Positions 31,579 to 36,524 of a DNA stretch of 53,263 bases are shown here, piece after piece. The number at the start of each line of letters is the position of its first letter. Position 1 is the first letter of the stretch. The translations under genes and the position numbers were made by a program. Below the pieces are notes generated by a model, which worked only from the letters and a program-made list of their open reading frames with translations, was not told where the DNA came from and searched no databases. The stretch comes from Bacteroidota bacterium. Lineage in GTDB: Bacteria > Bacteroidota > Bacteroidia > NS11-12g > UBA955. The stretch spans positions 1 through 53,263 of the forward strand of contig JBKDBI010000464.1 of assembly GCA_046314695.1 (NCBI GenBank), written 5' to 3'.

Positions 31579-32556
31579 TTAGGAGGGGAGGTCGGTGGGG
31601 ATTTGGGGGAGGGGACCGCCACGGGTGCGTTCGAGGAAGCCGTGGGGGTTGGAGGCGTCCTCCTCCGTGCGGGAGAGGATGCTGGGACGAGACTGGAGGT
31701 TGTGTGCCGGGTTGGCACGGGACATTGCGGCTTCGATGGAGGGGGTGATGCGGACGGCCCGCACTTCACTAAGGTAGTGCTCGGTGTTGGGGTCGTGGGG
31801 GATGGTGTCACGGCGAGCGGGTGGGGTGGGCGGGGTGACAGTGACTGGAGAGCGTAGTGTGTCTTGGTCGGCTTCTTCGTGGAGCCAGCAGGCAGGCGGG
31901 GTGTGGAAGGAGCGTTGAGCGTAAGTGATGACAGGGAAGCCGGTGAAGCGGCGACGGATATTGTCGAGCATCAAGCAGGCGAGAGCGGTGTTGCCGTAGA
32001 GGGTGGTGGGCACGCCGCATGAGCCGGGCTCGGGAGGGACGGCGGAATCGGGGAAGTGAGCGGAGAGGTAGGAGGCGTAGGAGGGGGCGTCGAAGATGGA
32101 GCGGAGGACGTAGTCGATGGCGCGGACACGGGGGGAGAGGTAGAGGTAGGGATCTGGACGATTTTCCAAGTGGGGGATGAGCTTGGAGGCGATGAAGGCG
32201 TCGGTGTCGCGTGAGTCTACGCAGGAGCAGACGATGGGGGTACAGGAGCGGAGGTCGTGGGCGGCGGACCAGCGACGGGCGTGGTAGGTGATGGAGATGG
32301 AGGGACGGGCGATGCGGAGTTCGGAAGCGAGAGCTTCGACCTTGAGGAGGCCGAGCTGGGCAGCGGACCAGCCTTGGGGGCCGAGGTTGTGCGGCTCGAT
32401 GGTGTCGAAGTCGATGAGGGTGAGGTGTGTGAAGCCGGTGTAGGCGAGTTGGCGGGCGAAGGCTGCGCCGGTGCCGCCGCAACCGATGATGGTGACGGGG
32501 AGGGAACGGATGGAGGGAGGGAGGAGGGCGGCGAAGCGGGTGTCGTCGATGGTCAT
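31579..32556 (-). CDS. ThiF/MoeB/E1-like adenylyltransferase
   Basis: ATG 32556 overlaps the JAB gene stop (ATGA). VTIIGCGGTGAAFARQLAYTGFTHLTLIDFDTIEPHNLGPQ ... KVEALASELRIARPS ... IVCSCVDS is the classical E1/ThiF Rossmann signature. About 130 aa of unassigned C-terminal sequence. Confidence 0.75.
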   Translation of the reverse strand: MTIDDTRFAALLPPSIRSLPVTIIGCGGTGAAFARQLAYTGFTHLTLIDFDTIEPHNLGPQGWSAAQLGLLKVEALASELRIARPSISITYHARRWSAAHDLRSCTPIVCSCVDSRDTDAFIASKLIPHLENRPDPYLYLSPRVRAIDYVLRSIFDAPSYASYLSAHFPDSAVPPEPGSCGVPTTLYGNTALACLMLDNIRRRFTGFPVITYAQRSFHTPPACWLHEEADQDTLRSPVTVTPPTPPARRDTIPHDPNTEHYLSEVRAVRITPSIEAAMSRANPAHNLQSRPSILSRTEEDASNPHGFLERTRGGPLPQIPTDLPS

Positions 32557-34127
32557 GAGTACAACTCCTGCTGGGTGGTGGTCTTGAGGGCGGTGAGGGA
32601 AGTGACGAGTTCGTCGAAGACTTCTGTGAATGCAGTGTCGAGAGCGTCGGACTCTGAGAAGGTACTGTGCTCGCAGATGTGGGACCAAGCGAGTTCGTAG
32701 CGAAGGAGGCAGCCGACGGCGAGGATGGATTGGTCGGGGTTGAGAGTGAGGAGGAGGGTGTTGATGCGGGACACGTCGGAGGGGGTCCACTCCCACTCGT
32801 CACGGGCAGCAGACCACGAGATGCGGAATGCGCCGGTGGATTCGTCGTACTGGAAGACGCGGGAGTCGGCGATGAAATCCTTGATGTCGGAGACGGAGAT
32901 GGGAGAGGAGTGGGGTCGCCACTCGATGGCGTAGAAGGCTTCGTACCAAGTGTCCTCGGGGTTGGTGGGGTTGAGGCTGGGGTTGAAGATGGGGAGCAGG
33001 GTGGGGAAGGTGGAGGGGGTGAGCATGGCACGCCACTTAGAGAAGGAGGTGGCACGCTTGTACTGGACGAGGGGGCCAGAGTCAGATTGAGACTTGGATT
33101 GAGCGAAGTAGGGGGTGAGGGAGGAGGCGAGCCATGTGGCAACAGGGGTGAGGAGGGTGCCCATGAAGGACTGCATGTTGCCGATGAAGTCGTGCCACGC
33201 TTTGCGGATGACGGGGGCAGCGTCGGGGTGAACGAGGTAGGGGAAGGATTCGGAGTCGGGAATGAGCCACGACTGGTTGACAGCTTCGGAGAGGGGGATG
33301 TAGCCGAGGGAGCGGGCGTGCTGAGAGGTGACGGATTGGAAGGGAGGGTGAACGAAGGAGGAGAGCTGGGCGTAGAGGGAACGCTTGAGGGCTTCGTTCT
33401 TGGATTCGGACTGGGTGTGCCAGTTGGTGGTGAGGTTGTGGGAGTAGATGGTGGCGGGAGTGATGGTGGGTGCGCCGGGATTGGCGGCGAGGGCGGACTG
33501 GAGGAAAGCGAGACGATCGGCGGGGGAGAGGGGGAAGGGTGTGCCATCTTCGAGGAAGGCACGGAAGGGGCAGTAGTAGAGGAGCTTGGCCGGGCCGTCG
33601 TAGACGGGAGGGGAGGAGGCGAGAGCGGGGAAGCCGGGGATGACGGCGGGGCCAAGGGGATAGCGGACGCGGAGAGAGAACTCGGGGAAGGCGGTGGGTG
33701 AGGTGGGGCGACCGAAGATGAGCATCATGGCGAAGGGGCCAGTCGATTGGACGGTGCGCCAGTTGGAGTCGTCGCCGCCGGAGGGGGTGGCGGACTCGCC
33801 GGGGTGGGTGTGGAAGATGAGGTTGGTGCAGCAGGGGAGTGCGTTGGGGGAGGTGTCGAAGACGGAGAGCGAGTCGGTGGGGTCGATCTCGAAGGAGGCT
33901 GCGGTGGATTGTTGGCGGGGGACGAAAATGTCGATGATCTTGAAGGGATCGGCGGGGTCGGGTATGAGGAGAGCGGCGGTCTCGCGGGTGCGGAGCGGGT
34001 TGGGCTCGTCGTTGGAGATGGAGGGAGCAAGGGCGAGCAGGTGGAGTTTGAGGTAGGCGAGAGCGGAGAGGGTGACGGTGGGCTGGACGGTGGGATGGTC
34101 AGACGACGGCGGCTTGCGATTCGACAT
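32553..34127 (-). CDS. JAB/MPN+ (JAMM) metalloprotease domain protein with a large unassigned C-terminal region (524 aa)
   Basis: ATG 34127 (MSNRKPPSS). RETAALLIPD ... NLIFHTHPGESATPSGGDDSNW gives a complete E...HxHx7Sx2D signature. Confidence 0.7.
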   Translation of the reverse strand: MSNRKPPSSDHPTVQPTVTLSALAYLKLHLLALAPSISNDEPNPLRTRETAALLIPDPADPFKIIDIFVPRQQSTAASFEIDPTDSLSVFDTSPNALPCCTNLIFHTHPGESATPSGGDDSNWRTVQSTGPFAMMLIFGRPTSPTAFPEFSLRVRYPLGPAVIPGFPALASSPPVYDGPAKLLYYCPFRAFLEDGTPFPLSPADRLAFLQSALAANPGAPTITPATIYSHNLTTNWHTQSESKNEALKRSLYAQLSSFVHPPFQSVTSQHARSLGYIPLSEAVNQSWLIPDSESFPYLVHPDAAPVIRKAWHDFIGNMQSFMGTLLTPVATWLASSLTPYFAQSKSQSDSGPLVQYKRATSFSKWRAMLTPSTFPTLLPIFNPSLNPTNPEDTWYEAFYAIEWRPHSSPISVSDIKDFIADSRVFQYDESTGAFRISWSAARDEWEWTPSDVSRINTLLLTLNPDQSILAVGCLLRYELAWSHICEHSTFSESDALDTAFTEVFDELVTSLTALKTTTQQELYS

Positions 34128-36268: not shown

Positions 36269-36269
36269 A

Positions 36270-36524
36270 TCAGTTGCCCTTCTGCTGGGTGAAGGTGGCG
36301 AACACGTCGGACATGTCGGTGACGACCGTGTTGTTGATCCCATCCGGCGTGAGGGCGGTGATGGTGGAGGTGCCCGCCGCACGGTAGGTGATGGCGTACC
36401 CCGACTCGCTGAAGGGGACACCAGCAGCGGTGAGGACGGCAGCGACGGTGCTGCCCTCGGGAACCTCAAAGACGCGGCGGGTGTTGTTGCGAGAGTCGGT
36501 GACGCGAACGTTGGTAACAGCCAT
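36270..36524 (-). CDS. Small beta-grasp (ubiquitin/ThiS/MoaD-like) protein candidate, 84 aa, ending Gly-Asn
   Basis: AAGGAG lies 6 nt before ATG 36524. MAVTNVRVTDSRNNTRRVFEVPEGSTVAAVLTAAGVPF...VVTDMSDVFATFTQQKGN. The pattern resembles ThiS/MoaD (..EVPEG.TV..LL...G ... DGD.V.....GG). Confidence 0.5.
   Translation of the reverse strand: MAVTNVRVTDSRNNTRRVFEVPEGSTVAAVLTAAGVPFSESGYAITYRAAGTSTITALTPDGINNTVVTDMSDVFATFTQQKGN

Follow-up and report, generated by a model that had tools for sequence, protein, structure and literature searches.

The 53,263-bp contig JBKDBI010000464.1 (the window, i.e., the whole stretch of DNA analyzed here) is a complete phage contig, the minus strand of which carries a cassette of four genes spanning approximately 5 kb. 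In gene order, the cassette encodes a small ubiquitin-like protein (Ubl) of 84 amino acids, a 690-amino acid protein with E2-like features, a JAB peptidase, and an E1-like enzyme (coordinates in Table 1), and probably represents a phage-encoded ubiquitin-like conjugation cascade. An earlier note on this DNA had suggested a virus-encoded Ubl-type activation and trimming system located among the early and replication genes. This proposal is supported by the ThiS-type family of the modifier, by an invariant glycine followed by variable tails, and by the recurrence of the gene order.

The 84-amino acid protein as a probable precursor of a modifier

The first gene product had been described as a beta-grasp protein of the ThiS/MoaD/ubiquitin type. 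This assignment holds transitively, via ThiS- and ubiquitin-like homologues, but is not visible in the protein itself. Direct Pfam matches were weak (Ufm1 0.046, Fer2_4 0.034, SLBB 0.079), all of them to beta-grasp families and to the same segment. The AlphaFold model computed from the single sequence reached a predicted local distance difference test score (pLDDT) of 57 and showed the order strand, strand, helix, and four strands, which is compatible with a beta-grasp. Neither the model nor the protein gave matches above noise in Foldseek and in profile hidden Markov models (HMMs) of the PDB. An hhalign comparison of a pair of 84-amino acid sequences with eleven known Ubls was weak (z 3 or less) and fell into the same beta2-alpha1 register.

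An exhaustive search of representatives with the 84-amino acid protein yielded three homologues, P0023 (60% identity, ending QQKGN), P0025 (45%, QQKGN), and P0026 (41%, AQKGG). P0024 and P0027-P0031 were rejected as spurious matches to larger repeat proteins (WD40, Big_2-type). In three distant cassettes, the small proteins at the same position end IPTKQTG-QNVQG (contig L027), TPTNMKG-AIGSEGAEIRLAA (L036), and TTPKQAG-SR (L017). That of L036 exceeds the Pfam ThiS gathering score (22.5) with 27.9 bits, while those of L027 and L017 match ThiS (0.006) and Ub-Mut7C (1e-4), respectively. The family of the window protein aligned end to end with these three distant Ubls at an hhalign probability of 87% (E 4e-6), and the terminal glycines fell into register. 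Gly83 (codon 36276-36278) and D70 are invariant in the resulting alignment of seven sequences, and the tails following the glycine are N, N, N, G, QNVQG, SR, and 13 residues. D70 corresponds to the first aspartate of the "DGD" strand of ThiS/MoaD, the pattern DGDxxxVxPTxxxG of the distant members being aligned with DMSxVFxTFTQQKG.

The Gly-Asn end pointed out in the earlier note is thus found in the window, P0023, and P0025, whereas P0026 ends Gly-Gly; Asn84 is not conserved, but Gly83 is. A variable tail behind an invariant glycine fits a pro-modifier that is trimmed by a JAB peptidase, and we predict that the 84-amino acid protein is a diverged modifier of the ThiS/ubiquitin type, the precursor of which carries a dispensable tail behind the conserved glycine. 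For BilA, which ends Gly-Ala (Gly97-Ala98 in E. aridi), trimming by the JAB enzyme BilC was shown experimentally (PMC10557695), and a JAB-exposed C-terminal glycine of the modifier is also known from BubAB/BubCD (PMC11601596). Pup-like deamidation of Asn84 was rejected, because PafA/Dop are absent and one lineage ends in glycine.

The JAB peptidase

The third gene product matches Pfam Prok-JAB (E 1.2e-7; 32 bits, gathering score 25) and, weakly, PADLOC JAB and NCBIfam Cap3 (0.02); its NCBI name is Mov34/MPN/PAD-1. The complete JAMM signature described in the earlier note is present. E49, H106, H108, S116, and D119 form the full catalytic set and are invariant in six homologues down to 14% identity, among which L28, Q72, and P164 are the only other invariant residues. 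The JAB domain is followed by a C-terminal extension of approximately 360 amino acids, for which no match was obtained in Pfam, PHROGs, NCBIfam, PADLOC, and PDB-HMM. The suggestion that this extension might harbor an E2 was not borne out: hhalign aligned it with the part of E2 enzymes behind the catalytic cysteine, an upstream cysteine is missing, and the match was rejected as noise.

The E1-like enzyme

The last gene of the cassette encodes an E1-like protein with a ThiF match in Pfam (E 1.1e-20) covering residues 16-123 only. PADLOC E1-E2 was matched with E 3e-16 and the NCBIfam ThiF model PRK08644 with E 2.6e-22, the latter below the family cut-off. In the profile search against the PDB, MoeB, MccB (in second place), UBA5, NAE, and BubCD ranked close together, which indicates that the enzyme belongs to no specific known subfamily. 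The hhalign comparison with MoeB and UBA5 gave a probability of 97% and extended up to the SCVD motif containing the Mg-binding aspartate. The ThiF/E1 adenylation domain announced previously is therefore confirmed for the N-terminal half, but the C-terminal half does not match known E1 enzymes. In eight E1 members sharing 22-30% identity, R7, GxGxxG (G25/G27/G30), D49, N57, L58, Q61, K72, D114, R143, and C180 are invariant. The core comprises a single domain of approximately 245 amino acids (233-270 amino acids among the members), and to our knowledge it represents the smallest kind of E1 known.

At the C-terminus of the E1 proteins, a conserved DLP[SF] motif follows a linker of 0-90 nonconserved residues (window 31579-31821; L011 7870-8886; L003 1606-2343). 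In UBA5, a C-terminal peptide recruits the E2, and the DLP[SF] tail recalls this peptide.

A candidate E2 core in the 690-amino acid protein

The large second protein had been called Cys-rich, which is incorrect for the window copy (1.4% Cys and 5.5% His) and applies only to distant homologues such as that of L027. The statement that it belongs to no recognizable family stands: the protein, its core, and its distant homologues gave no match in Pfam, PHROGs, NCBIfam, PADLOC, and PDB-HMM. AlphaFold, run with an alignment of three sequences, produced an unusable model (pLDDT 31). Few residues are kept across four lineages at 28-40% identity, namely LFPxxPYE, HPHI 287-290, C303, N336, P337, S339, C356-x2-C359, and H389-x2-C392. 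The N-terminal LFPxxPYE may serve as a docking peptide.

The same region reads IVHPHVQGTHICLGD...VLRTYNPQSPY in the distant cassette of L027 and CHPHIRGGRPCLG...LQSYNPADVF in that of L036; the amino acid composition of these cassettes is ordinary. The region bears a close likeness to the E2 signature, YHPNI..G.ICLDIL ... LL..PNP.DPL. In eight E2-like sequences including the distant cassettes, an arginine, the histidine of HP, and the cysteine are invariant, and nothing else is. In an hhalign comparison with four eukaryotic E2 enzymes, 65 columns were aligned, in which HPH corresponds to HPN, Cys303 to Cys85, and NPxSP to PNPxDP. The score was 22.4 at a probability of 3%, and 4 of 150 column shuffles reached an equal score (p ~0.03; 3/100 and 1/100 in narrower tests). 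The idea that an E2 is hidden in this protein thus fits the evidence at the level of motifs, but no profile or structure method recognizes one. We consider an E2-like fold with Cys303 as the catalytic residue to be fairly probable, based on the pattern of the motifs, on the fact that they fall on conserved residues, and on the position of the gene, which is like that in Bil. A CEHH motif (C-x5-E-x-H-x4-H) was rejected, as neither Cys303 nor Cys186 of the JAB protein is followed by the two histidines.

The putative zinc-binding motif behind the candidate core matched Pfam zf-Tbcl_FmdE (E 0.015) and the LIM domain (E 0.87) weakly, and CxxC motifs occur at the same place in the distant homologues. 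Together with the poorly conserved C-terminal part, it would be suited to target selection. The C-terminal half of the L027 protein (3067-5295) is full of CxxC motifs with dozens of cysteines, which is consistent with multiple zinc fingers, compared with a single CxxC...HxxC in the window copy. L017 encodes two proteins with a ...LCLG[GE]YAD... core, located upstream of the JAB gene (1386-2351) and downstream of the E1 gene (4073-4558), which indicates two E2-like paralogues.

Recurrence and divergence of the cassette

Word-indexed protein searches yielded close relatives only: L001 (ENA, 16.6 kb), L011 (ENA, 46.7 kb), and L003-5 joined with L006-10 (Logan). The latter two groups were counted as one lineage, since the tail of L006 overlaps L003, so that the window, L001, L011, and L006+L003 make up the four related lineages. 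L001 and L011 contain the genes of the Ubl, the large protein, the JAB peptidase, and the E1 with stop/start overlaps. The third relative is split, L006 carrying the Ubl and large-protein genes and L003 the JAB gene, the E1 gene, and a gene for 223 amino acids. As the window and these relatives are collinear throughout, their synteny alone proves little.

A search with the E1 alignment retrieved 26 further loci in IMG/VR and metagenomes, in 11 of which local HMM searches detected a JAB gene immediately upstream of that for the E1. The full four-gene order was also found in L027, L036, and L017, if the large protein is taken as the E2. BLAST detected no further genes common to these contigs and the window, except for a fragment of a family-A DNA polymerase in L036. 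Recurrence in contigs without other common genes shows that the cassette is conserved independently of the genome backbone. Synteny in relatives, which the earlier note had named as a test, is hence given in the four related lineages and in these three contigs.

Only the E1 alignment succeeded in finding such loci; IMG/VR, JGI metagenomes, and GTDB genomes yielded nothing when scanned with single proteins or with the JAB alignment, and no match to the cassette was obtained in one genome for each of 185,579 GTDB species. Among the INPHARED phages, neither the region (megablast) nor the large terminase or the JAB domain (tblastn) had a match. The E1 retrieved remote ThiF-like genes only (tblastn), e.g., in MT836827, where a different E1 of 382 amino acids lies beside an FtsK-like ATPase without a JAB gene.

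The rates of divergence were contrasted between 31579-36524 and 19274-26385 in comparisons with L001 and L011. Between the window and L001, the identity amounts to 84% for the DNA polymerase and 83-92% for neighboring genes, but to 75% for the E1, 60% for the Ubl, 49% for the JAB protein, and 36% for the E2-like protein. The fast divergence of the last three suggests diversifying selection or exchange of the cassette, and a contrast of this kind would be expected for proteins at a conflict interface.

Proposed reaction sequence and points against it

In the proposed cascade, the 84-amino acid pro-modifier would be made in excess, the conserved hairpin behind its gene attenuating read-through. 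The JAB peptidase would remove the residue or residues after Gly83, in the phage of the window the single Asn84. The minimal and probably homodimeric E1 would then adenylate Gly83 and probably take the modifier onto Cys180, an invariant residue in all eight members, before it is handed to Cys303 of the E2-like core. The 690-amino acid protein would act as an E2/E3 hybrid, with targets selected by the zinc motif and the fast-evolving C-terminal part, and the JAB peptidase could also reverse the modification. The position in the early block and the fast evolution of the Ubl, the E2-like protein, and the JAB protein lead us to infer that the cassette acts soon after infection at the interface of phage and host or of phage and phage, where it would tag host, defense, or competitor proteins.

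Several observations weigh against this reading. The C-terminal half of the E1 has no detectable sequence match in the PDB and no similarity to solved E1 structures. The arginine of the NLxRQ motif is missing in all eight E1 members (NLGPQ, NLGTQ, or NLATQ), for which the invariant R143 may compensate. None of the eight contains the CxxC zinc sites of MoeB and UBA5, and the putative correspondence of Cys180 to UBA5 C250 and ThiF C184 comes from manual alignment only. For the E2-like core, the hhalign probability is low, the AlphaFold model failed, and the library searches were negative; the match of E2 enzymes to the C-terminal part of the JAB protein was similarly weak, which marks the noise level. 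Finally, the 84-amino acid protein itself gives no confident fold.

Comparison with known systems

With regard to its mode of action, the cassette would most closely resemble Bil or UFM1-type cascades. The Bil genes are arranged as Ubl-E2-DUB-E1 (PMC10557695), which corresponds to the order found here if the large protein is the E2, and in both cases there is no separate E3. The modifiers also share a glycine followed by nonconserved residues, which in Bil are trimmed by the JAB enzyme. In contrast to the single-domain core described here, the E1 of Bil, BilD, consists of several domains (IAD-AAD-CYS), of which the Cys domain is mobile. BilB is a small and recognizable E2 (CEHH in Type II), whereas the large proteins of the cassettes comprise 435-742 amino acids, are invisible to profiles, contain zinc motifs, and lack the CEHH spacing. 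Bil is a defense system of bacterial chromosomes, but the genes studied here lie in the early/replication block of a 53-kb phage contig. PADLOC detected no Bil component in the cassette beyond the generic E1 and JAB matches. The cassette is not a member of Bil, since E1 architecture and context do not agree.

The eukaryotic UFM1 system (UBA5, UFC1, UfSP) uses a minimal E1 with its cysteine at the end of the crossover region and a modifier of approximately 85 amino acids with a single C-terminal glycine that is exposed by trimming. The cassette shares the minimal E1, an identical SCVD motif at the Mg site, the size of the modifier, the single glycine, and a disordered E1 tail with a short conserved end motif. 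However, trimming would be performed by a JAB metalloprotease instead of a Cys protease, the zinc-site cysteines of the E1 are missing, and an HPH motif, which UFC1 is not known to contain, is present in the candidate E2. Only the N-terminal half of the E1 shows the likeness to UBA5.

Bub (6E/DUF6527; PMC11601596) likewise combines a JAB peptidase that makes the C-terminal glycine of the modifier with a minimal E1 of the homodimeric type and a diverged E2. An accessory protein of 6E operons carries a C-x3-C...H-x2-C zinc signature (PMC1779556), which resembles C-x2-C-x29-H-x2-C of the 690-amino acid protein. Unlike Bub, which forms Tyr/Ser oxyesters without catalytic cysteines and fuses JAB to E1 and Ubl to E2, the cassette has invariant Cys180 and Cys303 and four separate genes, and DUF6527 did not match any of its proteins. 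It is therefore not Bub. Type II CBASS shares E1 and JAB domains of the same superfamilies (Cap2/Cap3), but in Cap2 an E2 is fused to the E1, and a CD-NTase rather than a Ubl is activated; with neither a cyclase, an effector, nor such a fusion, the cassette is not CBASS.

In the literature searched, the only published association of a Ub-like protein with a JAB peptidase in phages is the tail assembly pair I and K of lambda and T1, which comprises a Ub-like domain and a JAB peptidase (PMC1779556). That pair belongs to the tail gene cluster, its JAB domain is fused to NlpC/P60, and no E1 is present. The possibility, raised in the earlier note, that the JAB protein is a lambda K-like tail protein was checked: NlpC/P60 gave no match, the gene lies in the minus-strand replication block, and an E1 gene adjoins it. 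The cassette is thus not the I/K pair.

Alternative explanations

A different outcome of the same first steps would be an E2-independent sulfur carrier or a system of the SAMP/Urm1 type, in which a thiocarboxylate serves a sulfur metabolite or nucleoside, or the modifier is conjugated directly, and the 690-amino acid protein is an acceptor enzyme or unrelated. The distant modifiers match ThiS best and the E1 matches ThiF (PRK08644) best, which agrees with this explanation, as does the failure of every profile library searched to recognize an E2. Neighborhoods of JAB, E1, and ThiS/MoaD genes occur in the CysO/Mec+ and QbsCDE pathways (PMC1779556), and the archaeal SAMP/UbaA/HvJAMM1, CysO/MoeZ/Mec+, and QbsCDE all combine a ThiS/MoaD-type protein and a minimal E1 with a JAB peptidase exposing the C-terminal glycine. 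However, these triads are linked to enzymes of sulfur transfer, lack an E2-like partner, and use modifiers ending Gly-Gly, whereas in the modifier described here KG is followed by a tail that varies. Searches of the cassette proteins and of the scanned window proteins revealed no rhodanese, cysteine desulfurase, PP-loop, or other sulfur-acceptor enzyme, and the window contains no tRNA genes. An E2 would agree with the HPH...C...NPxSP pattern and with a gene order like that of Bil, and fast divergence of the Ubl, the JAB protein, and the large protein would not be expected for a metabolic pathway. We therefore regard a sulfur carrier as unlikely.

The same biochemistry might also serve another role, namely a phage-carried defense or superinfection exclusion that tags structural proteins of competing phages, as Bil does. 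All characterized bacterial relatives (Bil, type II CBASS, and probably Bub) are directed against phages (PMC10557695, PMC11601596), fast evolution fits an arms race, and the cassette moves between unrelated phage backbones. On the other hand, it lies with translational coupling inside the early/replication block and not in a moron-like island, and its minimal single-domain E1 is unlike BilD. Neither an integrase nor a repressor was recognized among the window proteins scanned, which did not include every ORF, so that lysogeny is unsupported. An exclusion role appears improbable on these grounds, although defense and offense rely on the same chemistry and are inseparable with the present data.

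It is very improbable that the four genes are mere neighbors in a collinear genome without joint function. The synteny of L001, L011, L006/L003, and the window does span the whole region, but the same order recurs in the contigs with otherwise unrelated gene content, the stop/start overlaps are conserved, and the three enzyme types constitute a known functional triad.

MccB- or PaaA-like chemistry, in which the E1 would act on the C-terminal asparagine via a succinimide and an N-P linkage to give a peptidyl-nucleotide, requires the Asn side chain and can practically be set aside, even though three close lineages end in Asn, MccB ranked second in the PDB search, and the hairpin behind the small gene resembles precursor/enzyme operons: the variable tail behind the invariant glycine (a terminal Gly in P0026, and SR, QNVQG, or 13 residues elsewhere) speaks against it, the MccB match covers the generic Rossmann part only, and the E1 begins with the adenylation domain (at about residue 16) without an N-terminal peptide-clamp (RRE-like) domain, which also disfavors the analogy to MccB/MccA drawn in the earlier note.

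Gene anatomy and expression signals

All four co-oriented ORFs listed previously are present on the minus strand. Ribosome-binding sites were identified 6-8 nt before the starts of the genes for the 84-amino acid protein (AAGGAG, the strong Shine-Dalgarno sequence already noted), the 690-amino acid protein (CAGGAG), the JAB protein (CGGAG), and the E1 (CAGGAG). The 690-amino acid gene and the start of the JAB gene overlap by 29 nt, and the ATG of the E1 gene overlaps the JAB stop codon as ATGA, as described before. Ribosome-binding sites and stop/start overlaps are shared by all four related lineages. Behind the Ubl gene, all four related lineages have a hairpin of 12-14 bp followed by CUUUC/UUUG, the stem sequence of which differs among them. 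It is probably a leaky terminator or a stabilizer of the RNA 3' end, giving modifier in excess of enzyme.

The gene at 30668..31336 encodes a Pro-rich protein without a family match in Pfam, PADLOC, PHROGs, NCBIfam, and PDB-HMM. Homologues of 222-223 amino acids lie directly behind the E1 in L003 and L011; one is also present in L001, and a weak relative was found in L036 at a distance of approximately 7 kb from the E1.

A motif of 16-17 nt, cccCCCACTCAAGGtg, is frequent in the window. Its 11-nt core occurs 21 times exactly and three times with one mismatch (1.5 expected), e.g., at 36255-36265(-), 37014-37024(-), 30178-30188(-), 41026-41036(+), and 41073-41083(-). The motif is found in both orientations and mostly in intergenic positions just upstream of start codons, where AAGG represents the Shine-Dalgarno site. 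Otherwise, it lies at gene ends and encodes PPTQG, and one copy directly follows the stop codon of the Ubl gene. It is frequent in the related phages L001 and L011, too, and could be a regulatory, processing, or protein-binding site.

Table 1. Features of the cassette and its surroundings, with positions in the window
Feature	Position	Strand	Basis
Pro-Ubl, 84 amino acids	36270..36524	-	ORF and AAGGAG site; homologues P0023, P0025, P0026; hhalign link to distant Ubls
GC-rich 13-bp hairpin followed by CUUUCC, between Ubl and E2-like genes	36202..36231	-	Terminator-like match
690-amino acid protein at E2 position of the cassette	34099..36171	-	ORF and ribosome-binding site; homologues at 28-40% identity in four lineages
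LFPxxPYE motif, N-terminus of 690-amino acid protein	36106-36171	-	Conserved in four lineages
Candidate UBC/E2-like core, residues ~155-345	35137..35709	-	Conserved motifs; hhalign to E2 enzymes
HPHI 287-290, 690-amino acid protein	35302-35313	-	Conserved motif
Candidate catalytic Cys303, 690-amino acid protein	35263-35265	-	Conserved Cys
NPGS 336-339, 690-amino acid protein	35155-35166	-	Conserved motif
C356-x2-C359...H389-x2-C392, putative treble-clef zinc-binding motif	34996..35106	-	Ligands invariant in four lineages
JAB/MPN+ metallopeptidase, 524 amino acids	32553..34127	-	Pfam Prok-JAB
JAB domain, residues ~17-160	Pfam match 33708-33986; HxH...S..D motif 33771-33812	-	Pfam, alignment
Minimal E1-like adenylating enzyme, 325 amino acids	31579..32556	-	Pfam ThiF
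E1 core, residues 1-245, and Cys180	Core 31822-32556; Cys180 32017-32019	-	Eight-member alignment
222-amino acid Pro-rich protein with conserved cysteines	30668..31336	-	Follows E1 in relatives

Phage context and composition of the window

Profile scans identified genes for a large terminase, a family-A DNA polymerase, an exonuclease, an AAA_24 protein, and an ERCC4-like protein. According to the gene map based on codon statistics, a minus-strand block (12.9-40.4 kb) holds the replication genes, and a plus-strand block (41.2-53.2 kb), with more plus-strand genes at 0.5-12.4 kb, holds the large terminase gene. A promoter-like site was found at 40548-40520 on the minus strand. The cassette lies near the promoter-proximal end of the minus-strand block, preceded by about nine small genes. 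Among the genes upstream of the cassette are two tandem paralogues (37545-37784 and 37788-38024; 78-79 amino acids, ...SCPIA.AIRR...), which are conserved in L011, L006, and L012. A glycosyltransferase gene with a DXD motif (516-1184; Pfam Gly_transf_sug, E 7e-12) is located in the plus-strand block at the left end of the window. An Rfam search of the window gave no match.

The same or a nearly identical phage contig is deposited in metagenome-assembled genomes labeled Bacteroidota, Phycisphaerales, Acetobacteraceae, and Alphaproteobacteria. Phage contigs are often binned into unrelated genomes, and mis-binning is the likely reason for this spread; the names of the bins consequently give no host.

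The two strands differ extremely in composition: in the early genes and in those at 41-46 kb, the coding strand contains 45-54% C and 12-18% G. At third positions, these genes have frequencies of 0.7 for C and 0.07-0.13 for G, compared with 0.45 for G and 0.3 for C in late genes, and the GC skew reaches 0.57 (regions compared: 22000-46500 versus 1-12400 and 46500-53263). Due to this skew, the proteins of the cassette contain little Gly, Lys, and Glu and much Pro, Ser, Thr, Leu, and His, and the biased amino acid make-up probably explains why profile and structure methods failed on them.

Implications

No description of a phage-borne cassette of E1, JAB, and Ubl genes was found in the literature searched, and the earlier note likewise knew of no described early-region phage system of this composition. 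So far, prokaryotic Ubl conjugation has been characterized as a weapon of the host against phages (Bil, type II CBASS, and probably Bub). What distinguishes the candidate is its recurrence in unrelated backbones, its position in the early block, the evolution of the Ubl, the E2-like protein, and the JAB protein at several times the rate of adjacent replication genes, and the minimal E1. A wider interpretation, which we hold with somewhat less than even confidence, is that several unrelated lineages of tailed phages carry a complete Ubl cascade of their own, comprising a pro-Ubl, an E2/zinc-finger hybrid, a JAB peptidase for trimming and deconjugation, and a minimal E1 without the motif arginine, which is expressed early and tags host or defense proteins. 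The cassette is small enough for direct testing by co-expression, and its diverged E2 candidate and Arg-less E1 would be useful for defining the minimal requirements of Ubl activation. If the interpretation is true, a new branch of E2 enzymes that is invisible to profiles would have been found, and a cascade owned by phages would place the same chemistry on the viral side, as offense instead of defense.

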